Source: a virus. From it: a stretch of 35,960 bases of DNA. Of this stretch, positions 1 through 35,960 are shown piece after piece; the first letter of the stretch is position 1, and every line of letters starts with the position of its first letter. The position numbers and the translations under genes are program-made. Where the stretch lies: positions 1-35,960 of the IMG/VR virus record IMGVR_UViG_3300009648_000002; one strand, 5' to 3'. Under the pieces are notes generated by a model. That model was given only the letters and a program-made list of their open reading frames with translations, did no database searches and was not told where the DNA came from.

Positions 1-123
1 AAAGTATTACAACAAACCATACACAAAAAAGGTGCACATCAAGGCCCTTGTGAAGGAAACTATCAAATCAAAGACCCAAGATGGGGATCCTGTGAAAACA
101 CTCAAACTACTACTCGGCGACGA
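1..123. repeat. Terminal direct repeat, identical to 35838-35960 (circular genome overlap or terminal redundancy)
   Basis: The last 123 nt of the window match the first 123 nt base for base by visual alignment. Confidence 0.85.
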
Positions 124-1822
124 AAGAACAGATAAACTACTCAAATCTATTAAATCCTACAAACTAGACCCTGTCATCTCCATACCCTTCCATGGAGACA
201 GCGAAATCTATCTTGACGACAAGGACAACCGGGTGCTGCTCATTAAGACAATCAACATCAAGGGTAAATCAATCACAGAGGAAAGAATAGTCATAGACGC
301 CTACCCTGAAAGAATATCAATCTATGAATCCCCACTCCCAGGCGAAACACGACAAATCAAGATACAATGGATATCACCAACACAACAAAGATTCACGGAA
401 GGCCCAGCACCATTCGAATATCACATTGAAACACTCAAAGAATCAGGGCGTATATTCTATCACAACGTTTGCAGGGATGTCCTGGCCACCATAATAGGGT
501 GGATGGCCTACAAGGGAAACGCAGTGATTGAAAGGGGAGTTGACACACCCGGATTTTACTACAACGAGAACGAGGGAAAGATATACTCAGTCAAATATGA
601 TATCAAAGACGTCACCGCAGAGGATATCAAGGCATGTGCAGATCTACTCTCAAGTCTCTCAGAATACTTTGATGACCCTGTAAAGCTAGCAACAGTCCTG
701 AAATGGTGTATCATAGCACCATTCAATTATGTGCGTAAACAAGTCGGCGCCCCACTATTCCCCTACCTGTACCTCTATGGGGCTTCAGGTTCAGGGAAAA
801 CGAGCGTCGCGAGGATAGGTCAATACGTTTACACTTACCCCACAAGTGAAAACGATGTCGGAGGATCCAGCTTCGACACAGTAGCAAGGGTAGGTCATAG
901 GATCAGCCAATCAACATTCCCTATAATCATTAATGAACCAAAAGCCTGTTTTGATCGTCCCAGCACTGCTGAGATGATCAAGGTGATGGTCGAATCAACG
1001 ATAGGACGCGGGAGACATGAAGGTAAAGTATTCAAAAACATACCCAGCCTCTCACCAGTCATATTCACTTCAAACCATTACCTGCCACCAGATGACGCAT
1101 TACTGCGACGATTAGAGGTTATTAACTTCGTCCAGTCAGAGCGGAAGAATGATGAGGATTCGAAGGAGTTTAACGAGAAATTCAGGATTAACACGCCACA
1201 TAAGAGTCCGCTCATGGTTCTGAATAATCTTGGGGCATTCGCTGCCAGGGAGTTCATCGAGGACGTGGAGCTCTGCACAGATGATTGGAAGGCCGCTGCG
1301 AACAGTATCATCCTGAGATTCTATGCTGACGCTGGCCTGGAGCCTCCTGAGTGGTTGCTTGGCTGGTCAGAGACAGAGAGTCTTGAGGATGTGGACGATG
1401 ATATCAGGGAACAGGTGAGGATCTTCATTATGGAGCAGATCAACAATGAGGTCAGGAAGGCTAAATGGGTTGACAGTGAAGAATATAATGTTCAAAGGGA
1501 TCTTTCAGGGTCTTTCAGGGTCTCTTTCGCTGAGAAGGCTGAGAATGTCCTGTTGAATGGACTTATACCCTATATGGTCTTACATGAGGGGTATAAGGGG
1601 CGGCGTGTTGTATTTACAGGAGGTTTTAAGGATGCTGTGAACAGGGCGCTTGGTCTGTCGTTGACGTTGAAAGGCCTCTCTGACATCCTGGGTGAGGAAT
1701 GGATGTATGGTTCTGTCAAGGTGTCAGGGAGGGTGATGAAGTGTATGCATATCTGTTTTGATGAGTTTGTTAAGTTTGTTGATTTAAGTGAAATCATGTT
1801 AGAAAAAGAGGAGGATTTTTAG
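32..1822 (+). CDS. Replication protein with SF3-helicase-type NTPase domain; true start is at 35698 across the junction (~653 aa in full)
   Basis: Walker A LYLYGASGSGKTS, Walker B-like FPIIINEP and motif C IFTSNHY at SF3-like spacing; frame is open and continuous with the ORF starting at ATG 35698. Confidence 0.6.
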   Translation: MHIKALVKETIKSKTQDGDPVKTLKLLLGDERTDKLLKSIKSYKLDPVISIPFHGDSEIYLDDKDNRVLLIKTINIKGKSITEERIVIDAYPERISIYESPLPGETRQIKIQWISPTQQRFTEGPAPFEYHIETLKESGRIFYHNVCRDVLATIIGWMAYKGNAVIERGVDTPGFYYNENEGKIYSVKYDIKDVTAEDIKACADLLSSLSEYFDDPVKLATVLKWCIIAPFNYVRKQVGAPLFPYLYLYGASGSGKTSVARIGQYVYTYPTSENDVGGSSFDTVARVGHRISQSTFPIIINEPKACFDRPSTAEMIKVMVESTIGRGRHEGKVFKNIPSLSPVIFTSNHYLPPDDALLRRLEVINFVQSERKNDEDSKEFNEKFRINTPHKSPLMVLNNLGAFAAREFIEDVELCTDDWKAAANSIILRFYADAGLEPPEWLLGWSETESLEDVDDDIREQVRIFIMEQINNEVRKAKWVDSEEYNVQRDLSGSFRVSFAEKAENVLLNGLIPYMVLHEGYKGRRVVFTGGFKDAVNRALGLSLTLKGLSDILGEEWMYGSVKVSGRVMKCMHICFDEFVKFVDLSEIMLEKEEDF

Positions 1823-1834
1823 GTGAACCTAAGA

Positions 1835-2119
1835 GGTAACCTGAAGGTAACCCAAAGTAACCTCAACCATGAGGTTACCTTTAGAGGCCTGGAGAGCCTT
1901 TTTTTCAGTAAAAAGGAGTTCTCTGCGATTTCCGAAAAAGGTAACCTGAACCTGAGGGGTGATACCCTATACTCAGAAAAAACTGGTCAAACCCTTAAGT
2001 TACCTTGGTTACCAAGTTACCTTTTATATATGGGTTACCAAAGTTACTTTGGTTACTTTTCCTCAGAATCCTCAGATAACCCGGAAACCCATCAAAACCC
2101 ATCAAAACCCCGGGTTACC
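1835..2119. repeat. Iteron-like array of at least 11 (G)GTWAC(C) motifs, putative replication origin
   Basis: GGTAACC/GGTTACC copies at 1835, 1846, 1857, 1873, 1940, 1999, 2007, 2016, 2033, 2043, 2051 and 2113; also a tandem acccatcaaa x2 at about 2090-2110 and a T7 run at 1899-1905; sits directly downstream of the Rep gene. Confidence 0.5.
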
Positions 2120-2159
2120 TCAACAAGAACAACCAAAACTGAATATAGAGGTTAGATAG

Positions 2160-2453
2160 ATGAGAAATGATAAAAATGAGAGATTGTGGAACTTTAAGGA
2201 ATTAACCCACTACCTCGGCTACTCCATAAAAGTCAAACCCACCCTAGAAAAACTCGCTAAAAAGAAATACAGAGTCAGCCTAGCCGTCCTCGAAGAATTC
2301 CAGCCACACTTCACACCCACCACAGGTGGAATGAGCCAGACAACCATCGAAATAGGAATATACAGGACAAGGACAGAGTCAATCAAAAAGATCAAAGAGA
2401 TAATCGACACAATAACCATAGAAGACCTCCTCATAGGAGGGATGAAGCAGTGA
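2160..2453 (+). CDS. Hypothetical protein (97 aa)
   Basis: ORF with an RBS-like sequence; its stop overlaps the GTG start of the next gene. Confidence 0.45.
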   Translation: MRNDKNERLWNFKELTHYLGYSIKVKPTLEKLAKKKYRVSLAVLEEFQPHFTPTTGGMSQTTIEIGIYRTRTESIKKIKEIIDTITIEDLLIGGMKQ

Positions 2454-3214
2454 AAACCATAAGACTCACAACCGACAACCCAGCAGGCTTGCACAGCATA
2501 ACACACATGCTGACACAGATAAACGTCGACATTGCCACCATCCACGCCACACCAGAGGCCCTGACACTCGAAGGCATGGACGGGTCACACATCATCTACT
2601 ACAACATCAGGATCACACCAGACTTCTTCACAGACTACAAAGTCCCAGAGAACGAGGAACTATCAGTCCCAGTCGAAGAACTCAACAACATCCTCAAACT
2701 CACAGGGAGAAACAACACAATCACAATCACCAACCATACAGATGACGAGGAGAACACCACGTCCCTCATCGTCACCAGGTCCACAGAGAGAGACGAAACA
2801 AGGTTCACAATACTCTGCCCTGACATAGAATACGCCACCCCAACAGTCGACATGGGCACATTCGAATTAAATGCGACGATCACAGTCAACACAGACATGA
2901 TCACGTCATTCTTCAAAGACGCGGCCCTCACATCCTCTGACGCGATCGAGATCAAAGTCGATGAAGACTACCTGTACCTCATGACACCTGAGGATTACAA
3001 TGGATTCCATGTCATGTCCCGGCAGGGGCATGGTGAGAAAGTCTATGGGGAGTACTTAAGCCAATTCACGATAGAGAAACTCAAACCACTTATCCTCGAC
3101 GGATTTGAGACCGTTACAATCCACGTGGACAACGAGAAACCAATTAAATTAGAGTACTCAGACATTGGGGTTAGAGCGAACCTTCTCCTGGCCCCACGGA
3201 TCATAGGAGAATAA
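2450..3214 (+). CDS. pcn: DNA polymerase sliding clamp (PCNA) homolog
   Basis: 254 aa, typical PCNA length; C-terminal RANLLLAPRIIGE matches the archaeal PCNA C-terminus (compare P. furiosus ...RLTFLLAPRVEE); GTG start preceded by ggaggg. Confidence 0.7.
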   Translation: MKTIRLTTDNPAGLHSITHMLTQINVDIATIHATPEALTLEGMDGSHIIYYNIRITPDFFTDYKVPENEELSVPVEELNNILKLTGRNNTITITNHTDDEENTTSLIVTRSTERDETRFTILCPDIEYATPTVDMGTFELNATITVNTDMITSFFKDAALTSSDAIEIKVDEDYLYLMTPEDYNGFHVMSRQGHGEKVYGEYLSQFTIEKLKPLILDGFETVTIHVDNEKPIKLEYSDIGVRANLLLAPRIIGE

Positions 3215-4412: not shown

Positions 4413-4435
4413 TATAGACATATATAGCGAAGTAT
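4413..4435 (+). promoter_or_regulatory. Putative archaeal promoter (TATA-like element plus conserved 14-mer atatagcgaagtat)
   Basis: tatagacatatatagcgaagtat is 19/23 identical to the motif at 10741-10763; both lie 10-14 nt upstream of an operon start codon. Confidence 0.4.
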
Positions 4436-4448
4436 GGGGAGTGGATAT

Positions 4449-4772
4449 ATGATATACATAGTTACACGGCATCAGAGCACTGTTAACTGGATTAAGGCTA
4501 AACTGAATGGTAAAGGCCTTGACCGGGACGTCTTCGTCGCAGGGCATCTCAGTGATCAGATGATCCTGCAGATGAAGAAGGGTGATGCTGTCTACGGCAT
4601 CCTCCCCATCCACCTCATCAAGAGGTTGCTCCGTAAGGGTGTGGATTATTATCATATGGTCCTACCCGATGTCCCTGAGGAATTCAGGGGTAAGGAGTTG
4701 AGTCTTGAGCAGGTGAAAGCGTTTGGAGGTCAAATATGGAAAATTAGGGATATTGATTGTGTTGAAGTATAA
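4449..4772 (+). CDS. Small protein (107 aa), possible Csx16/VVA1548-like CRISPR-associated (ring-nuclease-like) protein; identity uncertain
   Basis: Start at ATG 4449, in frame with the track ORF from 4434; motifs IVTRH and GILPIHL recall Csx16-family proteins from memory only. Confidence 0.35.
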   Translation: MIYIVTRHQSTVNWIKAKLNGKGLDRDVFVAGHLSDQMILQMKKGDAVYGILPIHLIKRLLRKGVDYYHMVLPDVPEEFRGKELSLEQVKAFGGQIWKIRDIDCVEV

Positions 4773-4799: not shown

Positions 4800-4985
4800 T
4801 CACCGATCCCGAGGAATAACCCTCCACCGGCCCAAGACGAGGGCCTTCTGGAGGGCCGTGAATTCCTCGGGAGTGATGTCATACTCCCTGAGGAACTCAT
4901 CAAGGGACATCTTGTCCACTATTTCGTGTCTGTTCAAGGTCATCCCAAGAATATGGGATAACCTGAACCTTTTCTCTGTACTCAT
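4800..4985 (-). CDS. Hypothetical small protein (61 aa)
   Basis: Minus-strand ORF preceded by gaggtgagatag-ATG, the RBS pattern used elsewhere in this genome. Confidence 0.45.
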   Translation of the reverse strand: MSTEKRFRLSHILGMTLNRHEIVDKMSLDEFLREYDITPEEFTALQKALVLGRWRVIPRDR

Positions 4986-5004
4986 CTATCTCACCTCAAT
5001 AAAA

Positions 5005-5148
5005 CTACACTATCCTCTTCACCCTGATCTCGAGGAGGACAGCTTCATCATCCTTCATGCCGAGTGCTTCCCTGACGGCTATGGGGATTGATATCCTCCC
5101 CTGCCTGTCAGGTTTGGCGGTGAAGGTGAACTCAGTCACCTTCACCAC
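5005..5148 (-). CDS. AbrB/SpoVT (MazE-like) swapped-hairpin domain protein, 47 aa; sub-threshold gene absent from the ORF track
   Basis: Minus-frame translation VVKVTEFTFTAKPDRQGRISIPIAVREALGMKDDEAVLLEIRVKRIV fits the AbrB/MazE core pattern (GRISIP...RE.LG...D); GTG start preceded by a GAGG-like RBS; overlaps the 3' end of the acidic-protein gene. Confidence 0.45.
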   Translation of the reverse strand: MVKVTEFTFTAKPDRQGRISIPIAVREALGMKDDEAVLLEIRVKRIV

Positions 5149-5389
5149 CCCTCTCGTCGATGTATTTCATGACGCGGTCGAAGAGTTCCTCTGCGGTCTG
5201 ACCATCCTCATAGCTGAGCCAGTGGATGGCTACTGAGTCTTCGTCGAGTTCCTCTGGGTAGTAGAAGTCCTCAACGAGTTTGAGGGCATCCTCAAAGGCC
5301 ATCTCAGCTTCCTCGTATTCTTCCAGGATTTCATCTTTGAGTTCATTGGCGAGCTGGATGATCTCCAGCTCCTCTTTTGTTCTTTTCAT
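5132..5389 (-). CDS. Highly acidic small protein (85 aa)
   Basis: About one third of residues are D/E; intact ORF in the minus-strand operon. Confidence 0.5.
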   Translation of the reverse strand: MKRTKEELEIIQLANELKDEILEEYEEAEMAFEDALKLVEDFYYPEELDEDSVAIHWLSYEDGQTAEELFDRVMKYIDERGGEGD

Positions 5390-5391
5390 GA

Positions 5392-5973
5392 CTATTCCTC
5401 CCTCCTTTCAAGTTCTTCTTCGAGGAGGTTAATCGCCTCCTCAACATATTCAGGGTCAGCCCATTTAAGCTGACCCCGTGCTTCGAGCCATCCGCATAGC
5501 TTCCTATACTTCCCCAGGGTGGTGAGCCCTGGGGCGTGGATTATTCTGTCGATTTCGTACCTGAGAACCCCACGATAAAAGTCCTCGATGAAGGCTATTA
5601 CGCCTTCATCAACCGGGCCCTCCACCCTGTACAGTGGCACAACCCTCCCAGTGGACTCGACGTAAGCGATAACTGTGAGGGTTTCATCCCTCCTGCGGTA
5701 CAGGTAGAGGCCCTCCCGGATCCATGTCCCGGTCCAGTGCCACCGTTCTACCTCCGCAGCCACAAGTATCCTACCCAGCCCCATGTAGGGCTGGTAAAAA
5801 TCAACATCATCCTCGGCGGCTATGCCTCCGACCCTTACGATCTCCCACCCCTTGGCGTTGGGGTGGGACTCCCCTGTTATGGCCTGGGCGAGTTTCCCGG
5901 GCCGTACGAGGAACTCGTCCCCATTTCTTTTGAGGAGGGCTCTGCGCACACCCTCCATGACGTCAGTTTTCAC
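5392..5973 (-). CDS. Hypothetical protein (193 aa)
   Basis: Minus-strand ORF in the GC-rich cassette, immediately upstream of the acidic-protein gene on the same strand. Confidence 0.5.
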   Translation of the reverse strand: MKTDVMEGVRRALLKRNGDEFLVRPGKLAQAITGESHPNAKGWEIVRVGGIAAEDDVDFYQPYMGLGRILVAAEVERWHWTGTWIREGLYLYRRRDETLTVIAYVESTGRVVPLYRVEGPVDEGVIAFIEDFYRGVLRYEIDRIIHAPGLTTLGKYRKLCGWLEARGQLKWADPEYVEEAINLLEEELERREE

Positions 5974-6438
5974 TTATTCCACCTCCTTGAGGTCTACGTT
6001 GTAGACCTCTCCAGCCCTGACCCTGTCGGCCAGGGCCTCTACCTGGGTCGCTGGGGCGGCGACCCAGAAGTGTTCCTCGTCGCAGAGCCCACAGGACCCT
6101 GCGACGAGGACGACCTGGACCCCTGCCTGGGCCAGGTCGAATGCTATGCGGTAGAGGTCTACCGCATGCTCCTCGAGGAGGTCTTCGTCCTCCTCCTGGA
6201 AGTCTGAGAGGTCCCAGAGGACCTCCCAGAACTCCTCCCCCTGTGGGTGGAGTATTTCTTCCCCACCCACAATGGAGATCTCTTCGAGGATGGGGAAGGG
6301 GTTCTCCCCATCCTGGTTGTATTCGCTGATGGCCCTTAGGGCCTCCACGGTGTCTCCCATGGAGGCCCTGAGAAGGGCCCCATGCGCGATCTCTACTTCC
6401 GCGCATATTTCCACAATTTCTTTTCGCATATTCACCAT
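5974..6438 (-). CDS. Hypothetical protein (154 aa), first gene of the minus-strand operon
   Basis: Minus-strand ORF directly upstream of the 193-aa gene; a TATA-like sequence lies upstream on the minus strand around 6516-6530. Confidence 0.5.
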   Translation of the reverse strand: MVNMRKEIVEICAEVEIAHGALLRASMGDTVEALRAISEYNQDGENPFPILEEISIVGGEEILHPQGEEFWEVLWDLSDFQEEDEDLLEEHAVDLYRIAFDLAQAGVQVVLVAGSCGLCDEEHFWVAAPATQVEALADRVRAGEVYNVDLKEVE

Positions 6439-6702
6439 CTACCTCACCTCATTTTCTTGTGGGGTTCAGGTGTTTTCACCTGTACCCCGTTGAGTGTATT
6501 CTGTTGGAGGGAGTATATAAATGTTTTCCTCCCTCCACCTATACACTCCATGATATACCTTATTCTGGATACTAATATATATACTTTTCTATTCCTCGTT
6601 TACTTTTAATAGCAGAACAAAAAGAGACTAAAACATGAAACTCAGCACAATGTACGCTAAAGCAACAAAAAAAGAACTAAGACCAGGAAAAGAACAAGGA
6701 AC
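6439..6702. promoter_or_regulatory. Divergent AT-rich intergenic region with TATA-like boxes for the leftward and rightward operons
   Basis: AT-rich with tatataaa and aatatatatac elements between oppositely oriented gene blocks. Confidence 0.4.
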
Positions 6703-7257
6703 GTGCTGCATATGCCACGAACAGACAAGGAAGGACACAAAAAAAGATTAGGTCAAACCTTCACAACAACCGACCAGACAAGCAGGGGAGACGTCATCTG
6801 CCCCTACTGCATGACACTCAAAAAAGACAGCAACAAACTCCGCAGGACAATGTGGATCCTCACAGAAGACAAATTCCACCCATTCAAACGCCCAGAACTC
6901 CCACAGATCCTCAAAGAACCACCAGACAAACCATACTACCTCTACCTGACAAGGACGTACAAGAAGATAGGCTGGATAATCATGGACGGCCTCCTGAACC
7001 AACCCAACCAGAAGATCATCAGATTAGCCTGTGACATGGAAACACATACACTAAGCCGTGAATTAGCAGTCCAGACCATAGAATGGATTAACGAGCTCAG
7101 AGAAAAATACAGAATCAGTAAGACGGAGATGAAGACTGGTGATGTGAACCCAGGGAAACTACAGGACATGACCGTCAGGGAAGCCAGGAACCTGAACATC
7201 ACCCTAAACAAATTGAAGGGTAACCCCACATGGGAGTTACTCATAGACATGGCATAA
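6703..7257 (+). CDS. Hypothetical protein (184 aa)
   Basis: ORF following the divergent promoter region. Confidence 0.45.
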   Translation: MLHMPRTDKEGHKKRLGQTFTTTDQTSRGDVICPYCMTLKKDSNKLRRTMWILTEDKFHPFKRPELPQILKEPPDKPYYLYLTRTYKKIGWIIMDGLLNQPNQKIIRLACDMETHTLSRELAVQTIEWINELREKYRISKTEMKTGDVNPGKLQDMTVREARNLNITLNKLKGNPTWELLIDMA

Positions 7258-7278
7258 TATTAGAGAGGTGAAAAAGGG

Positions 7279-7410
7279 ATGACCCAAAAGAAGAACCCGG
7301 CACCCATCCTCGTCAGGATAGGGGTATGGGTGACCATGATCTGCCTGGGAATAGTACTATTCTTCGTAGTCCTGGGCCTAATATCCGCAATACTTGGAGG
7401 AGGCGTATAG
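7279..7410 (+). CDS. Small hydrophobic (single transmembrane) protein, 43 aa; absent from the ORF track
   Basis: ATG preceded by gaggtgaaaaaggg; translation MTQKKNPAPILVRIGVWVTMICLGIVLFFVVLGLISAILGGGV; fills the gap between flanking genes exactly. Confidence 0.4.
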   Translation: MTQKKNPAPILVRIGVWVTMICLGIVLFFVVLGLISAILGGGV

Positions 7411-7411
7411 G

Positions 7412-7759
7412 ATGACTGATGAGAAGACTGAAAACGCCCTCGCAAAGTGCCTTGCGATGACGTATAGGAACATTGAATGGAAGAAAGTTGGTGTGAAATC
7501 AGCGTACACATACTTCACAGACCGTGTGCGCGCAGCAAGCCGCATGAGCACCATCACATCCTTCCTAGAAGAACTAAACAGGATGTGCGGTGTCAGCTTC
7601 ACCCAGCACAGCCTCAAAGACATAAACACACTCAAAGAGAACGAAGACGAAGCCCTGAACCTACTCAGACATGAGACAAACTACGCAGTCCTACTCGCCC
7701 TGGAAGTTGTTGAGAAACTCAAAATGAAGAAAGCAGAGGATGAAGGTGATGAAGTATGA
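7412..7759 (+). CDS. Small alpha-helical protein (115 aa) immediately upstream of the RAMP gene
   Basis: ATG 7412 preceded by ggaggagg; stop overlaps the RAMP start (ATGA). Confidence 0.45.
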   Translation: MTDEKTENALAKCLAMTYRNIEWKKVGVKSAYTYFTDRVRAASRMSTITSFLEELNRMCGVSFTQHSLKDINTLKENEDEALNLLRHETNYAVLLALEVVEKLKMKKAEDEGDEV

Positions 7760-8601
7760 GGACTGTTAAGTACCCTGGAGTGTTAACTGCCCGGACACCT
7801 ATCCATCACGGCGGCCCTGAAGTCTATGGGACGATAAAACCCATACTCACACTCCCCACACTCATAGAGGATGAGAAGGGGATGAGGGTTGAGGACGTCC
7901 CCTACATCCATGGGAATGCGATCAGGGGGTACCTCCGCCGCCTGGTCATGCAGGACTTCCTGGATCAACTCGATTATGACCTCAAATCAGCGAAGATCTA
8001 CCATTTTCTCTTCACAGGGGGCCTCCTGGAGGCTAACACAAAATCCTCTGGTATGATTGACGTGAAACTCAAATCAGGGATCCGCAAGTACATCCCACCA
8101 GCAAGTCTCTGGGGTTCTGCCCTGGGCAATCAGATGATCCAGGGCAAATTGAAGGTGGACCTTGCAGAACCGATCTGCAAGGAACTTTACTGGCAGCAGA
8201 AACAGTACTGTGACATCGATGGCCCTTCAAGTTATTCCCTGAAGGCGAGGGACTTCGGGACCCGCCTTGATAGTCTCAGGGAGTACAAGGAGGACAGAGA
8301 GGATGGAGAGCAGGCGACGCAGATGAAGTACGAGTTCGAAGTCATCGTGAAGGGTGCGAAGTTCTATCATGAATTCACACTCACAGACACTGACCCTGTT
8401 GAGGAATCATGTTTCATCCGGGCATTGAACCTGTGGAGCGAACGCCCCTACCTCGGGGGGAAGAGCGGTTCAGGGTACGGGAAACTGGATATCCGCTATG
8501 ACTATGACCCTGATGCTGAGGCAACATACCTCTCGTATGTCGAGGAGAAGGCTGACCTGATCAGAGAGTTTCTTGATGAATTACAGGCAAACTGGCGATG
8601 A
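7756..8601 (+). CDS. RAMP-superfamily protein, Cas7-like (type III Csm3/Cmr4/Cmr6-like)
   Basis: Three RAMP hallmarks in canonical order: N-terminal TPIHHGG, central VPYIHGNAIRGYLRR (compare PYIPGSSLKG.LR) and a C-terminal glycine-rich loop YLGGKSGSGYGKL; 281 aa. Confidence 0.55.
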   Translation: MRTVKYPGVLTARTPIHHGGPEVYGTIKPILTLPTLIEDEKGMRVEDVPYIHGNAIRGYLRRLVMQDFLDQLDYDLKSAKIYHFLFTGGLLEANTKSSGMIDVKLKSGIRKYIPPASLWGSALGNQMIQGKLKVDLAEPICKELYWQQKQYCDIDGPSSYSLKARDFGTRLDSLREYKEDREDGEQATQMKYEFEVIVKGAKFYHEFTLTDTDPVEESCFIRALNLWSERPYLGGKSGSGYGKLDIRYDYDPDAEATYLSYVEEKADLIREFLDELQANWR

Positions 8602-9251
8602 TCATGTCTCTTGCTGCCAGGATCCAGGATAAAATCAGCGCCTACCTGAGACGATCTAAACACAGAGTAAAAAAACCACTCCACAAGGCCGACTCGAAGA
8701 CAATACAGGAAGTCTTTGACAGAATCCCTTTCTACACCCTTGCAAGGCACTGGGATGCCTATCACAACCCAGACAGATACACTACAAAAACCCTCTCCCG
8801 GCAGGTGAAGGTACCATACCACACACTCTATAATTGGATCACACGCAAATGCTCCACGAGGGTGGGCTGGTTCTGGAAGGGCTGGATCGTCATAGGGAAC
8901 ACAAAGGACCCCAGGAAACCAGCAATATTCAAGACAAAGACAACAGAAGAGATACTTGAAGATCTGCACACCAACTACATTGAATTACAACCACTCACAA
9001 GCAGGAAGGACTTTGAGGGATGCATAAGGAATTACCTGGAATGTAATGGGCCATCCACAGCCTTAGAACTCTACGAGGAGGTCGTGCTAAACAATTATAA
9101 CGCTAAATTCTCAAAGTCAAGGTACATGAAACGCAACGCATTCACCGCAATCATACGTGGCGTGGATGGCGTGGTGAAGGTAGGGACCAAAAAGGCGAAG
9201 GGCTATAACATGCCAGTCTATGCAGTTGATGAAGGATGTGTAGCAAAATGA
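8598..9251 (+). CDS. Hypothetical protein (217 aa), translationally coupled to the RAMP gene
   Basis: Start overlaps the RAMP stop; weak glycine-containing C-terminal segment; otherwise unrecognised. Confidence 0.45.
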   Translation: MIMSLAARIQDKISAYLRRSKHRVKKPLHKADSKTIQEVFDRIPFYTLARHWDAYHNPDRYTTKTLSRQVKVPYHTLYNWITRKCSTRVGWFWKGWIVIGNTKDPRKPAIFKTKTTEEILEDLHTNYIELQPLTSRKDFEGCIRNYLECNGPSTALELYEEVVLNNYNAKFSKSRYMKRNAFTAIIRGVDGVVKVGTKKAKGYNMPVYAVDEGCVAK

Positions 9252-10769: not shown

Positions 10770-11294
10770 GTGATGATGAAGGGTGAGGAAGAGAAGCACA
10801 GGGAAGCATACGACCATTACCTCGCCCACATTGAGGCAGGATACACAAAGACGGCGAGCGTCAAAGAAACAGCCAGAAGGATAGGGGTCTCCGAGGCAAC
10901 AGTCTGGAACTGGAAGAGACGCTTCCACTGGGATGAGAAACAGGCGATAGACAGCTACGAGATCAAAGAGACGTTCAAGGAAAGGAATCATGAGATCATC
11001 ATAGACTTCAAGACCAAATACCTCGCATTCCTCAATGACCTCATCGACCAGGCGATAGAGGAATTCCGTGAGGGCCGGGGCGTCGTCATGATACGTGATG
11101 TTGGGGACCTGGAACGAGTGATTAAAGTTGCCCTCCTCCTCCAGGGCGAGGCAACAAGCAGGACTGAGAGCAGCGTCCTGCAAGTGAACCGTGAAAAGAT
11201 AGAAGATTATGAGGAATACTTCAGAGAATTAGAGGAGGAATTTGGGGCGGGGGACGCTGAGGATGAGAATCAAGGTGCGGAGGGGATTTACTGA
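10770..11294 (+). CDS. terS: Putative terminase small subunit (HTH DNA-binding)
   Basis: HTH-like RIGVSEATVWNWKRR; position immediately upstream of and overlapping the large terminase gene. Confidence 0.5.
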   Translation: MMMKGEEEKHREAYDHYLAHIEAGYTKTASVKETARRIGVSEATVWNWKRRFHWDEKQAIDSYEIKETFKERNHEIIIDFKTKYLAFLNDLIDQAIEEFREGRGVVMIRDVGDLERVIKVALLLQGEATSRTESSVLQVNREKIEDYEEYFRELEEEFGAGDAEDENQGAEGIY

Positions 11295-12618
11295 TGCGGA
11301 GAAAGACTTCCTCACTGAGACAGTCCTTAAAAACCCTTACATTCCACATAAACCATTCCTTAAGCAGGCGATATTCCTCACCAGACTCGACAGGGAACTG
11401 CTCTATGGTGGTCAGGCGGGGGGTGGGAAATCTGACGCTCTCCTCATGGCAGCCCTCCAATATGTCATGTACCCGGATTATCATGCACTCTTACTTAGGA
11501 GGACTTACAAGGAATTAGCCCTTCCAGGTGCCCTTATGGATCGTGCGGATGAATGGTTAACACCTACAGATGCTGAGTGGGTCGCGGAGAACAAGACATG
11601 GGAATTCCCATCAGGAGCAACCCTCACCTTCGGTTACCTTGAGCATGAGCGGGATAAACACCGATACCAGTCCTCAGAGTTCCAGTTCATAGGCTTTGAT
11701 GAGCTCACAGAGTTCCAAGAGTCACAGTACACATTCCTATTCAGTAGGAACAGGAAGACAGAGGACAACCCCGTCCCCTTGAGGACAAGGGCTGCGACGA
11801 ACCCTGGAGGCGTGGGCCATGAATGGGTGAAAAGACGATTCATTGAAGGCCCAGCACCATTCCTTCCATCCAGTTACACTGAAAACCCTTACCTTGACGC
11901 ATCATATGAGGAAAGCCTTGATCTCCTCGACCCGATCACCCGACGCCAACTTAAATATGGTGATTGGTCCGCGACGATAGAGGGGAGGATCTTCACTGAG
12001 GATATCCTTGATTACTATGATGAGCCGCCGACACCAGAACAGACACGTCTTGCAGTCAGGTACTGGGACCTTGCAGCCACACCTGACAGGAATGATGACT
12101 CAATAAGTGGCGGTGCGGATTGGACGGTCGGGGCCCTCCTACTCCTTGACGACTCCGGAGGCCTCTACCTTGAGGATATCATCCGATTCAGGCTTTCACC
12201 CGCGGAGGCTGAGGATATGATCATTCAAACGATCCGTAACGACTTTCAAGTTTATAGGGAGAAATACATGGCGCGGGCTGAACTGGAGGGAGGAGCCTCT
12301 GCAAGGTATGTGATGGAATCCCTCCGCAGACGCCTGGCTGGGGTGAACTTTGACGGATCCCCTGTCCAGGGTAAAAGTAAACTAGATAGGGCCAGAGCGT
12401 TGATCCCAGCATTCAGGACATCCCAGTTAAGGCTTAAGAGGGATGCTCCATGGCTCTACACATTCACGAGGGAACTCCTCGCATTCCCATCAACTGGTGT
12501 TCATGATGACCAGGTCGACGCCCTCAGCGGGGCCTACCTCCAGGTCGCTGACTTAACATCAGGGGATCCGTATGGGGCTTCAGGTAGGCGGTATAAAGGT
12601 TATGGGGTGACATATTGA
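11242..12618 (+). CDS. terL: Terminase large subunit
   Basis: Walker A-like LYGGQAGGGKSDALL near the N-terminus; C-terminal nuclease-type motif HDDQVDAL; followed by portal; start may be ATG 11263. Confidence 0.7.
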   Translation: MGRGTLRMRIKVRRGFTDAEKDFLTETVLKNPYIPHKPFLKQAIFLTRLDRELLYGGQAGGGKSDALLMAALQYVMYPDYHALLLRRTYKELALPGALMDRADEWLTPTDAEWVAENKTWEFPSGATLTFGYLEHERDKHRYQSSEFQFIGFDELTEFQESQYTFLFSRNRKTEDNPVPLRTRAATNPGGVGHEWVKRRFIEGPAPFLPSSYTENPYLDASYEESLDLLDPITRRQLKYGDWSATIEGRIFTEDILDYYDEPPTPEQTRLAVRYWDLAATPDRNDDSISGGADWTVGALLLLDDSGGLYLEDIIRFRLSPAEAEDMIIQTIRNDFQVYREKYMARAELEGGASARYVMESLRRRLAGVNFDGSPVQGKSKLDRARALIPAFRTSQLRLKRDAPWLYTFTRELLAFPSTGVHDDQVDALSGAYLQVADLTSGDPYGASGRRYKGYGVTY

Positions 12619-29929: not shown

Positions 29930-31654
29930 ATGGCATCATACACCGCGACACAGGACGGGCTATGGAGCCAGGCCAGCACATGGGGTGGGTCCGGTGTCCC
30001 GGGGAACGGTGACACCGTAACCATCCCAGCTGGGCGGACGGTGACCTTCGACGTCGACCAGTCCAGCTTCGCATCAGGACTGGCCGGTTTAACAGTGGAT
30101 GGGGTCTTATCATGGAAGACTGACACCGTAACGTACCTCAAGATGGCCACTGATATCAATATTGGTGGTACGGGCACCCTACAGGTTGGCAGACCAGATA
30201 ATCGGATCCAGAGGCCCGCGCAGGGGTCACAGGTCAGGGCAACGATAAAACTGCAAGGATCCAACAGCAAAATCACAACCCCGAACATCTATGCCTATGG
30301 ATGGGATGAACGCCTGAACAGGACCACGCTCGCAGCCAACGCCTCAGCCGGGGCCACACAGGTCGTACTCTCCGAGGATATGAACCTGCAGGCCGGGGAC
30401 CAGATCCTCATCGGGGCAGGGACTGTGAACGACTATATGACGGAGTCTGCGAAGGGAGTGTACACCGTGTCCAGCTATGACCAGTCTACGAGGACTGTGA
30501 CCCTCACCGGGGCCCTGGGCCATGGACGGCTGGCAGGAGACTACGTAGGAGTATATAACAGGACAATATTCTTCGATACAGTAAGAAATTCGTCCTTTGA
30601 ATCGTATAATCCTGGTTATTATCGTTTTGAAGGCGTGACAATCAGGAGCAGTATCGGGTGGACATCCACACTTAATATGCCTTTGGCTGACGGAGTCCTT
30701 GCAGATAAATGCACATTCATCCCTTCAGGAACCTTCACAGGGACGTATGGGGGGCAATATGGTTCTCCTTATATTGTCCAGAACAGCACATTTTATAACA
30801 CGAGCGTGTCTTGGTCGCAGAATACAACGTTCAAGGACTGTGTCTTCATTCAAAGAGAATTAAAGGACTATGGGTTCATAACTTATCCTGCTGGGGCTCT
30901 ATTTGATGGCTGTTGGTTCCAGAACGCCCATGCAGTCGTATATAGATACCCTGATTTGGGTTGGGGGTTCAGTCAGCACAAGGGCTGCAAGGCCCGTAAC
31001 CTTCAAAGTGGAGCATACGGATCCTTCTCGCATCCTGTAACATGTTATAATATGGACTTCGGCGGATACACGCCAGTTAATAGGCTGTATTATCATCATA
31101 GGCTCTATGATTGCCTTGCACCCACCATCAGCATCGATTATGGGGCGGCTACACTGGAGGGTGCCCTGGAGTCCTTCAACCACAACCAGGTCCCCGGAGA
31201 CTACCGCCTCTACCAGTACGGAGGCGTCACACTCAAAGTCACAGACATCCCCGCACCAGGACGCACGTACAGCCATAAAACAAACCTCACATCCACTTAC
31301 AGCCCCGCGGTGGTGGGCCGGCCCCTCGGTGTCCTGGATCCCGGCGAGACCCTGGTCCTGACGGCGTGGATACGGAAGGATAAGACGTCAGCAGAGATGC
31401 CATACACCCCCCGCGTCCAAGTCCTACAGGGTGACAACTGGATCCATAAGCGGGACACCGATGTCCTGAAGGAGACCCTCATGGACCCCTCCAAAGTGAA
31501 TGAGTGGGACAAGGTCGTGTTGAAGTACCGTAACAAGGAGTCATACCCTGTACGGGTTTCGGGGCGTGTGAAGATGATGGGGTCCTCGGGGAATGTGTGG
31601 CATGTCCTCGGTGATGATGTCTCCGAGCGCGGTAAACTCGTATTCATCAAATAG
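29930..31654 (+). CDS. Putative tail fibre / receptor-binding protein
   Basis: 574 aa, glycine/threonine-rich beta-type sequence; last large gene of the tail module. Confidence 0.45.
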   Translation: MASYTATQDGLWSQASTWGGSGVPGNGDTVTIPAGRTVTFDVDQSSFASGLAGLTVDGVLSWKTDTVTYLKMATDINIGGTGTLQVGRPDNRIQRPAQGSQVRATIKLQGSNSKITTPNIYAYGWDERLNRTTLAANASAGATQVVLSEDMNLQAGDQILIGAGTVNDYMTESAKGVYTVSSYDQSTRTVTLTGALGHGRLAGDYVGVYNRTIFFDTVRNSSFESYNPGYYRFEGVTIRSSIGWTSTLNMPLADGVLADKCTFIPSGTFTGTYGGQYGSPYIVQNSTFYNTSVSWSQNTTFKDCVFIQRELKDYGFITYPAGALFDGCWFQNAHAVVYRYPDLGWGFSQHKGCKARNLQSGAYGSFSHPVTCYNMDFGGYTPVNRLYYHHRLYDCLAPTISIDYGAATLEGALESFNHNQVPGDYRLYQYGGVTLKVTDIPAPGRTYSHKTNLTSTYSPAVVGRPLGVLDPGETLVLTAWIRKDKTSAEMPYTPRVQVLQGDNWIHKRDTDVLKETLMDPSKVNEWDKVVLKYRNKESYPVRVSGRVKMMGSSGNVWHVLGDDVSERGKLVFIK

Positions 31655-32070: not shown

Positions 32071-32805
32071 ATGATGAAGAAGGAGTACAGGTTAGATGAA
32101 TTCCTGGATATGAAGCGTCGCTGGGAGGCCTTCAGAATCCAGAAGGGCAGAAAACCTAACTACGTGACTGATAAGGCGGGTGAAAAGATCCCAAGAGACG
32201 TGTTTAATGATATGCTACTAAGATATGAACGCTTCGTTGCACTCAACCATAGAGATCCAGCCCTCATCAAAGTGAAGGGTAATACTGCTGATGACGGGTG
32301 GGTTACCACTGGGTATTTCCAGCAGGACTATCAGGACACGGATCACACCTGCGGCCCCAGCAGCCTCCAGATGGCTCTCTCTGCCCTTGAGTGCAAGATA
32401 TCGGAGTCGGAGTTAACAAAGGCGGCTGGGACAACATTGAAGGGAACAGACCATAAAGGTATGTTGAAGGCTATCACTTATGCAGCGAATAAGTGTAAAA
32501 AGAAACTTAAAGCCGAATTTAAAAAATTCAAGGCAATAGGATGGGATTCGATCATTAAACACGTTGAGGGTGGCGGGGAAGTCATAATACACCTTGTCAC
32601 CCGGCCAGGCCTTGACACGGATGTGAATGGTCGAGTGGTCTGGCGTGGAGCATTCGGTCACTATGTCTACCTCGTCGGCGTGAACAGGAAGAAGGGAGTG
32701 GTGAGGATAGCTGACCCAACGAAGGGGATTCGAGAGTTCACTCAAGGACAAGTAGTTCAGGCGATAAATAACCTGTCACAACCCAGCATACTCCTAATAA
32801 AGTAG
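32071..32805 (+). CDS. Papain-like (C39-like) cysteine peptidase, candidate cell-wall peptidase/lysin
   Basis: Q...DHTCGPSSLQMALSAL (Gln, then Cys in a CG.xSL context) with downstream GHYVYLVG...RIADPTKG (His, Asp), as in the peptidase C39 arrangement. Confidence 0.5.
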   Translation: MMKKEYRLDEFLDMKRRWEAFRIQKGRKPNYVTDKAGEKIPRDVFNDMLLRYERFVALNHRDPALIKVKGNTADDGWVTTGYFQQDYQDTDHTCGPSSLQMALSALECKISESELTKAAGTTLKGTDHKGMLKAITYAANKCKKKLKAEFKKFKAIGWDSIIKHVEGGGEVIIHLVTRPGLDTDVNGRVVWRGAFGHYVYLVGVNRKKGVVRIADPTKGIREFTQGQVVQAINNLSQPSILLIK

Positions 32806-34797: not shown

Positions 34798-35013
34798 TTA
34801 TTCCTCCCTTATCATTGAAGGAGTCTTAGCATTTTTATCCTGCAGTCGGAGGATGTGAGAGATGATCCTGTGCGGGTCCATTTCAACCCACTCAACCCAT
34901 TCTCTTTCACCATCATAAATCCCTTCATGGAATTTGGCTACAATCCGGCCATCCTGAACTTTGAGTGAGACCTTGTCTCCCCATTCTAAACCGAATTTGA
35001 TAGTTGCCATCAT
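34798..35013 (-). CDS. Hypothetical small protein (71 aa)
   Basis: Minus-strand ORF whose start overlaps the upstream small gene stop (ATGA). Confidence 0.45.
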   Translation of the reverse strand: MMATIKFGLEWGDKVSLKVQDGRIVAKFHEGIYDGEREWVEWVEMDPHRIISHILRLQDKNAKTPSMIREE

Positions 35014-35150
35014 GGGACCACCCCTGATGTGCCCTCAATCTGGATGATGAAGAGGGCTGCCATCATCATCACAACTAGTAGTATTGTGATGATGTTAGTT
35101 GCTTGGACGTCACATTTGCACATGTAGGCTGTGTTTTTCTCCAATCTCAT
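35010..35150 (-). CDS. Small membrane protein (46 aa); absent from the ORF track
   Basis: ATG at 35150 preceded by gtgaggtgagatag; translation MRLEKNTAYMCKCDVQATNIITILLVVMMMAALFIIQIEGTSGVVP has a hydrophobic core. Confidence 0.35.
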   Translation of the reverse strand: MRLEKNTAYMCKCDVQATNIITILLVVMMMAALFIIQIEGTSGVVP

Positions 35151-35297
35151 CTATCTCACCTCACATATAGCCCATCTCTTCGTTTTGGGCTCTGTTAATA
35201 AGATTGGGGTAAACATATATAAACATAGGGAATATTGCACACATTTATATGCATCACTGTCATAGTCGATACTAGAACTGTTCAGGAGGTGAATTTA
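35151..35297. promoter_or_regulatory. Divergent promoter region with TATA-like boxes
   Basis: catatataaac and catttatatgc elements between the minus-strand operon start and the plus-strand RHH gene. Confidence 0.35.
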
Positions 35298-35501
35298 GTG
35301 AGAAAAGGGAATATGATCCGAATAACGTCGAGTGTCAGTGTCCTGCCAAGCCAATACTCAAAACTAAAAGCAGTTTTAGAGTCGGCGCAGAATGACTATG
35401 GCGTCACGATATCTATCCAGGAACTCCTCAGGGATGGCCTGGATAGCATCCTCAACGACATGGATGTAGAGAAATATCTAAAGAATAAGGGATTGATATG
35501 A
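35298..35501 (+). CDS. Putative ribbon-helix-helix (CopG/Arc-like) DNA-binding protein
   Basis: GTG 35298 six nt after aggaggtga; N-terminal beta-strand-like RITSSVSVLP followed by helices; the track start at 35235 would lie inside the promoter. Confidence 0.4.
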   Translation: MRKGNMIRITSSVSVLPSQYSKLKAVLESAQNDYGVTISIQELLRDGLDSILNDMDVEKYLKNKGLI

Positions 35502-35697
35502 CGGAGGAACATGAAATATGAATGAAGAAGAATTAGTATGGGGTGAGATAGATGAGTAGGATTACAGAAAAAACTGAGTTCCCACCCACCCTCAGTACTA
35601 CATTAGTTTTACGTCGTATAAATGTTTTCATCACCCCAACAAGTCATGTAAACAAAAAACAATGTAATGTACATGATAAAAGTTGGGGTGTAAATAT

Positions 35698-35960
35698 ATG
35701 AACTTCAAAGAAGCCCTGAAGGACAACTACTTCTCATCAGGACTAGACACAGAGGACTTCATCATCGCAGTCACACAACTCGCGCGCGACCATAACATCC
35801 CAGAAACAGACATAACCAATGCCTTAATACCCATAAAAAAGTATTACAACAAACCATACACAAAAAAGGTGCACATCAAGGCCCTTGTGAAGGAAACTAT
35901 CAAATCAAAGACCCAAGATGGGGATCCTGTGAAAACACTCAAACTACTACTCGGCGACGA
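35698..35960 (+). CDS. 5' part of the Rep gene, continuing in frame across the repeat into 1-1822
   Basis: ATG 35698 preceded by ggggtg; open frame reads MNFKEALKDNYF... through the terminal repeat with no stop. Confidence 0.5.
   Translation, partial: MNFKEALKDNYFSSGLDTEDFIIAVTQLARDHNIPETDITNALIPIKKYYNKPYTKKVHIKALVKETIKSKTQDGDPVKTLKLLLGD

Follow-up and report, generated by a model that had tools for sequence, protein, structure and literature searches.

The 35,960-nt sequence analysed here (the window) is, with a probability of roughly 80%, a complete circular-mapping genome in which the 123-bp repeat at the two ends is an overlap left by the assembler, and in which the linear record was cut by chance inside the gene for a putative initiator helicase. 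It most likely represents a complete ~35.8-kb tailed virus (Caudoviricetes, near the Methanobavirales) of a pseudomurein-walled methanogen. The coordinates of the features discussed below are given in Table 1.

A conserved gene for a 653-aa protein spans the joined ends

Bases 1-123 of the window are identical to bases 35838-35960 at all 123 positions, which is the longest exact match between prefix and suffix, and removal of one 123-nt copy leaves a unit of 35,837 bp. Identity across 123 nt has a chance expectation of ~4^-123. The terminal repeat is the only direct repeat of at least 25 nt with >92% identity in the window (the next best are imperfect and 26-37 nt long), and a 40-nt probe taken from it matched the two terminal copies only, with 0 matches expected in shuffled sequences. 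No long inverted repeats were found in the window by the repeat scan. When the ends are joined, the open reading frame that begins with the ATG at 35698, 21 nt past a stop codon of the same frame at 35677, keeps its frame across the junction up to the stop codon at 1820-1822 and encodes a protein of 653 aa, of which the listed ORF 32-1822 is the last 596 aa. The GTG at position 32 is a valine codon within the junction gene, and its counterpart in both of the closest relatives is GAA, not a start codon; the start at 32 is thus an artefact of linearisation.

Homologues of the joined protein are full length on other contigs (P0001, 98% identity, 657 aa; P0002, 90% identity, 653 aa), and, judged from this conservation, the junction ORF is a real gene. 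An earlier note made from the letters of the window had stated that the last 123 nt repeat the first 123 nt exactly, that the ORF from 35698 runs in frame into ORF 32-1822, that the start at 32 is artefactual and that the ends join to form one complete replicon of about 35,837 bp. The first three statements are borne out by the exact match, by the full-length homologues and by the relatives' codons, and the last is confirmed by the four contigs described below and by a full set of virus genes. In practical terms, one 123-bp copy should be trimmed so that the genome is handled as a circle of 35,837 bp, and the annotated product of the first gene should have 653 aa, not 596 aa.

Table 1. Positions of features in the 35,960-nt window, with the observations on which each description is based
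Feature	Position	Strand	Observations
5′ copy of terminal overlap	1-123	+	Inside helicase gene, codon 47 position 3 to codon 88; present once in L001, L082, L083 and L093
Helicase/initiator gene (putative), remainder to stop	1-1822	+	Walker A GASGSGKTS; Walker B-like IIINEP; sensor-1/motif C VIFTSN, then RR; C-terminal winged-helix-like domain
Putative replication origin	1823-2140		12 RGTWACY iterons at 1835-2119; AT tract TTTTATATAT at 2022-2031
PCNA sliding clamp, replication module	2450-3214	+	Pfam PCNA_N 2.9e-9; NCBIfam DNA polymerase sliding clamp 3.6e-20
Csx16 (Cas_VVA1548)	4434-4772	+	Pfam 4e-29; PADLOC 5e-34; 43% identical to PhiF3 ORF30
Csf1/Cas8	6703-7257	+	PADLOC 3e-22
Type IV Cas11	7394-7759	+	PADLOC 1e-23
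Csf2/Cas7	7756-8601	+	PADLOC 8e-69; Pfam RAMPs 4e-8
217-aa ORF in the Cas5 position	8598-9251	+	Unassigned; described by position
Terminase small subunit	10770-11294	+	Pfam Phage_terminase 1e-6
Terminase large subunit	11242-12618	+	Terminase_6N and Terminase_6C; 49-50% identical to psiM100/psiM2, 45% to PhiF3
Tape measure, 1470 aa	20525-24937	+	Transglutaminase-like core domain near C-terminus (Pfam 1e-3, below curated cutoff)
Tail-region protein, 574 aa	29930-31654	+	G8 domain 1.6e-12
Lysin	32071-32805	+	Pseudomurein-binding repeat and C39-type cysteine peptidase domain (Pfam 2e-11)
Non-coding leader 5′ of helicase gene	35502-35697	+	Differs among relatives; no promoter established
Helicase/initiator gene (putative), 5′ end, codons 1-47	35698-35837	+	Preceded by ribosome-binding-like motif GGGGTG; ATG shared with L001 and L083
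3′ copy of terminal overlap, redundant	35838-35960	+	Identity with 1-123; length equals largest k of the MEGAHIT list

Independent assemblies run uninterrupted across the join

The DNA of the contigs encoding P0001 and P0002, together with that of two further contigs, was aligned to the rotated 35,837-bp unit. The join was crossed in a single alignment block by four independent assemblies, each containing the 123 nt once: L001 (IMG/VR UViG 3300031260_000108; window 34960 through the join to 4432, 89.9% identity), L082 (a k127 contig from an ENA wastewater metagenome; 35710 to 1883, 98.7% identity), L083 (a SPAdes NODE contig from ENA; 35682 to 1900, 88.7% identity with 0 gaps) and L093 (AMZC01004860.1; 35794 to 4432, 86.4% identity). 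The multiple alignment showed that the bases flanking the join (ATACCCATAA followed directly by AAAGTATTAC) are contiguous and that the 123 nt are single. A 35,442-bp IMG/VR relative, rebuilt whole from three loci, is without a terminal repeat and aligns collinearly over window positions 30061 to 25034, the join included. Its contig thus ends at other positions, and the ends of the window are not the ends of the lineage as a whole. From the four uninterrupted assemblies and this relative with its ends elsewhere, it follows that the ends of the window are arbitrary cuts in a circular 35,837-bp map. An exact 44-nt junction probe gave no match in JGI metagenome contigs, and the window's own contig was absent from the collections searched.

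Two regions of the window vary among the relatives. Alignments to all relatives break or diverge within 34884-35697, a stretch of non-coding DNA and small ORFs 5′ of the helicase gene: the alignment of L001 breaks at 34883/34960, upstream of the non-coding leader (35502-35697), and L083 has no match over 35581-35681, inside the leader. This stretch is a variable early or regulatory region. The segment 25035-30060, which carries the genes for a Dit-like protein of 922 aa and a fibre protein of 605 aa in the tail-fibre region, is the sole part of the window absent from the 35.4-kb relative, whose contig ends at both of its borders. The segment is probably a host-recognition region so variable that assemblies break there. 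A query with the tail fibre retrieved no relative.

The 123-bp repeat as a probable assembler overlap

The identity of the two ends is most likely an assembler overlap on a circular map, not a physical terminal repeat. De Bruijn assemblers such as MEGAHIT emit circular paths with a duplicated end of length k. The last and largest value in the MEGAHIT k list used for JGI metagenomes (23, 43, 63, 83, 103, 123) is 123, and the samples processed with this recipe include Methanothermobacter-dominated thermophilic methanogenic digesters (PMC6126044); literature searches found no paper stating MEGAHIT's k-length overlap on circular paths. The assembler origin is proposed because the repeat starts with the last base of codon 47 and ends, by coordinate arithmetic, mid-codon in codon 88 of a gene that would be needed early, because the same bases are single-copy and internal in every other assembly, and because their number equals the largest k of the JGI list. 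A short-read de Bruijn assembler would have walked once round a circular graph and left a k-length overlap (k = 123) at both ends, the linearisation cut falling by chance within the 653-aa replication gene.

The window shares with the complete genomes classed as having a 'direct terminal repeat' by CheckV and IMG/VR the identical ends of probable k-mer length, the complete gene set and a gene split by the ends, and differs in that closure is here additionally verified by four independent contigs. An overlap of this kind is what complete virus genomes assembled from metagenomes ordinarily show, and the repeat should not be quoted as evidence on virion ends. Short-read assembly closes into a circle alike for circular, circularly permuted, cos and short-direct-terminal-repeat genomes, so the window establishes that the map is circular and complete, not the form in which the DNA is packaged. 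The earlier note had offered a choice between a circular episome or provirus and a terminally redundant virion genome; the closed circular map stands, whereas the 123 bp are probably not a biological redundancy and the provirus is unsupported, the former on account of the mid-codon boundaries, the single copy in the relatives and the match to the top k of the JGI list, and the latter for the reasons given at the end of the next section.

Packaging and the form of the virion ends

SPP1 is a headful packager, and the genome record of psiM2, a deletion mutant, likens the psiM2 terminase to that of SPP1. The large terminase subunit of the window is closest to those of psiM2 and psiM100, and the psiM1/psiM2 virion contains ~30.4 kb of packaged DNA with ~3 kb of circular or terminal redundancy (PMC3820453), for a genome of at least 26.1 kb according to the psiM2 record. 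Taken together, these likenesses make headful packaging somewhat the more probable mode for the virus described here, by homology: its large terminase is 49-50% identical to those of psiM100/psiM2 and the small-subunit gene is adjacent. Virion DNA would then probably be linear, cut by a psiM2-like terminase under the headful rule and circularly permuted, with a real terminal redundancy on the scale of kilobases in place of 123 bp. What bears on the topology of the packaged DNA is the 49% identity of the terminase to that of psiM2.

The alternative that survives best, although we regard it as unlikely, agrees that the map is circular and complete and that the 123-bp overlap is an assembler product, and places fixed virion ends elsewhere, at a cos site or a real terminal repeat that was collapsed by assembly. 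Assembly cannot tell these cases apart, the terminase is only 49% identical to that of psiM2, and among its relatives in bacterial phages (25-39% identity) the packaging types are mixed or not known; against fixed ends are the ~3 kb of redundancy packaged by the nearest characterised relative, the likening of its terminase to that of a headful phage, and the finding of no other long repeat, direct or inverted, in the window. The bacterial terminase relatives were also considered as a guide to packaging type and were rejected as too distant.

A linear, T7-like virion genome with the 123 bp as its real short direct terminal repeat, in which the helicase gene would be whole only after recombination of the ends or in concatemers, is very improbable. 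The ends are indeed exact direct repeats, T7-like phages do have terminal repeats of 100-250 bp, and L093 starts at ~35785, inside the helicase gene and only ~50 nt upstream of the repeat. However, such repeats normally lie outside genes, whereas both borders of this one fall within codons of an essential early gene. Four contigs continue across it with one copy each, and the ends of the long relative are at other positions. The terminase belongs to the psiM2 and not the T7 type, and the length is that of a standard k. The start of L093 also lies just past the hypervariable stretch 34884-35697, which explains the break of that assembly at this point. An integrated provirus cut out at attachment sites, with the 123 bp as the duplicated att core, can be rejected as having next to no probability. 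In its favour, an integrase-like gene is present in the related viruses psiM2 and psiM100, the latter of which is a provirus. In the window, however, Pfam and PHROGs searches of the ORFs >180 aa revealed no integrase, the integrase-like ORF29 of psiM2 gave no tblastn match, and there is neither a tRNA gene nor a single base of flanking host sequence. No close integrated copy was found in 185,579 species genomes (one genome per species), and the supposed att site would fall within the viral helicase gene, a gene that relatives carry uninterrupted. The scan of genome contigs returned only two small contigs of 37% identity, probably mis-binned.

The junction gene encodes a putative initiator helicase

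No sequence match to the junction protein was found in Pfam, PHROGs or the PDB (phmmer), and a profile of 49 sequences built on it matched P-loop fragments only in the PDB. A homology search returned 89 matches, the closest being unannotated proteins of 650-690 aa on methanogen-associated contigs and the distant ones proteins of 860-1050 aa with an N-terminally fused PrimPol domain (PF09250); PF19263 was detected in 1 of the 89. The homologues in annotated viruses are those of Methanobacterium virus Drs3 (ORF11, 33% identity) and Methanobacteriales virus vir080 (37%), both recorded as 'hypothetical protein', and of Hyperthermophilic Archaeal Virus 2 (HAV2), annotated "primase/DNA polymerase". 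Across the 49 sequences, the AAA+ motor columns G307, G312 and K313 (Walker A), E359 (Walker B-like, IIINEP), N405 (VIFTSN) and R417 are invariant.

An AlphaFold model of the 98%-identical P0001 (mean pLDDT 83.9) was used as the structure of the junction protein. From the N-terminus, which is helical, it runs through a beta-rich domain, the ATPase core and a lid of helices to a C-terminal helix-hairpin-helix-helix-hairpin unit resembling a winged helix. Foldseek searches with this model returned Cch (1e-9), followed by PriRep1, MPXV E5/D5 and SaPI5, and the model has the N-terminal domain, AAA+ core and C-terminal winged-helix-like unit expected of the Cch/SaPI Rep class by fold. The superfamily signals differ, the motifs being SF3-like and the best folds being the MCM-like Cch and SaPIbov1 Rep. 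The invariant motor columns and the fold matches of the model point to a replicative initiator-type helicase. Given that there is no family-level sequence match, the protein is described as working like the Cch/SaPI Rep class and is not called a member of it. The name Rep given to the gene by the earlier note is reasonable, being supported by the fold and by the iteron cluster directly downstream, not by a sequence family.

The likeness to the staphylococcal proteins SCCmec Cch, SaPIbov1 Rep and SaPI5 PriRep lies in the fold and in a downstream iteron origin, with a sequence identity of only 9-13%; in contrast to those initiator helicases, the protein described here belongs to an archaeal virus and its function is predicted from the fold. 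It also differs from primase-helicases such as D5, pRN1 ORF904 and that of NrS-1, which combine a PrimPol domain with an SF3 helicase, in that it has neither a PrimPol domain nor a Pfam hit; none of the other genes in the window was recognised as encoding a primase. On the modelled structure, it would act as a self-loading initiator helicase whose AAA+ core lies between a beta-rich N-terminal domain and a winged-helix-like C-terminal one.

A candidate replication origin follows the helicase gene

The region between the helicase stop codon (1822) and ~2140 contains 12 of the 19 RGTWACY sites of the genome (Poisson P ~1e-23) and, for the stricter form GGTWACC, 7 of 10. The copies of the left set have A at the centre (1835, 1846, 1856, 1940) and those of the right set have T, and three copies on each side flank the AT tract. 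All iteron sites are conserved in L001, L093 and L094. The ORF listed at 1823-2155 stays open in all relatives; its variable columns are distributed over the three codon positions as 17/15/12, compared with 43/17/177 in the helicase gene, and, lacking the codon-position bias, it is probably not coding.

The same arrangement was found next to the homologues in two annotated viruses. Of the 12 GGGTTGA sites in 7.7 kb of Drs3, 11 lie within 231 nt beginning 6 nt past the stop codon of the homologue, a minus-strand set first and a plus-strand set next, and in vir080 11 of 12 RGTAACY sites lie within 237 nt beginning 14 nt past the stop, again as two opposed sets. In staphylococcal pathogenicity islands the origin lies immediately downstream of rep and consists of six to twelve penta- or hexanucleotide iterons in opposed sets with an AT-rich centre, and the iterons are read by the C-terminal winged helix of the self-loading helicase (PMC9371898). 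The helicase gene of the window with its downstream iterons and AT-rich centre matches the layout of this SaPI rep-ori; unlike in the SaPIs, however, the copies on either side of the AT tract, three on each, share one polarity, and those of opposite polarity are found 60-190 nt further left.

By this analogy, 1823-2140 is a probable replication origin. The initiator helicase would bind the iteron array immediately past its own stop codon and melt the AT-rich centre, and replication of the circular intracellular form would start at the iterons, helped by the virus-encoded PCNA. That the junction gene and the iterons constitute a hitherto undescribed equivalent, in archaeal viruses, of the SaPI/SCCmec 'Rep plus downstream ori', conserved in this virus, Drs3 and vir080, with an iteron sequence that changes along with the protein and with a PrimPol-fused form in other archaeal elements, is a proposal to which we give even odds. 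The helicase-iteron unit offers a concrete, testable candidate origin for viruses of the Methanobacteriales. GC skew mainly tracks gene direction in the window and locates no origin.

Gene content, relatives and host

The gene set is that of a complete virus and comprises the helicase, PCNA, HTH proteins, both terminase subunits, a Mu-type portal, MuF, a protease/scaffold, tape measure, Dit, fibres and a pseudomurein-binding lysin. With the putative pseudomurein endoisopeptidase of Methanobacterium virus PhiF3 the lysin shares 49% identity, but its match to PeiP of psiM2 covers the N-terminal binding repeat only. The G+C content of the window is 50%, which, taken with the likeness of its lysin, tail and terminase to those of the PhiF3 and psiM viruses, makes a Methanothermobacter-like member of the Methanobacteriales the most likely host. 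No Rfam family was found in the window, and a scan for sigma-70 promoters and terminators gave nothing above shuffled sequences, such bacterial models not being applicable to archaea.

Comparison with known viruses of the order Methanobavirales, namely psiM1, psiM2 and psiM100 (Leisingerviridae) and PhiF3 and Drs3 (Anaerodiviridae), links the window to both families. Its large terminase is 45-50% identical to those of psiM100/psiM2 and PhiF3, the tail module, lysin and Csx16 are common to the window and PhiF3, and the helicase has its homologue in Drs3. In contrast to these viruses, the window has a Mu-like head module (portal PF06074, MuF, protease I), no integrase and a type IV CRISPR-Cas module. 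The virus appears to be a mosaic of Leisingerviridae and Anaerodiviridae. A megablast search with 25 kb of the window against phage records found no match at the DNA level. The complete genome is usable as a reference for the poorly sampled viruses of thermophilic and digester Methanobacteriales.

A type IV-B-like CRISPR-Cas module and a Csx16 homologue

An array-less, type IV-B-like CRISPR-Cas effector module is encoded on the plus strand at 6703-9251. It is the most interesting content of the window and may deserve a finding of its own. No CRISPR array or mini-array, cysH, DinG or Cas6 was seen in the window. Type IV-B systems were reported in 2024 in viruses of Bathyarchaeia, as not previously observed in archaeal viruses (PMC10848311).

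Upstream of the module lies the gene for Csx16, an accessory protein of type I and type III CRISPR systems; the homologue encoded here may be a counter-defence gene. The segment 4819-8646, which contains CRISPR-Cas genes, is 97-98.6% identical to the relatives L001 and L093, compared with only 83-90% for the replication and lysis neighbours, and these relatives carry insertions of ~1.7 kb and 2.5 kb at window positions 4767/4819 and 8646. The excess of identity over that of the neighbouring genes, together with the insertions at the borders, suggests a recent exchange of the CRISPR-Cas cassette 4819-8646.
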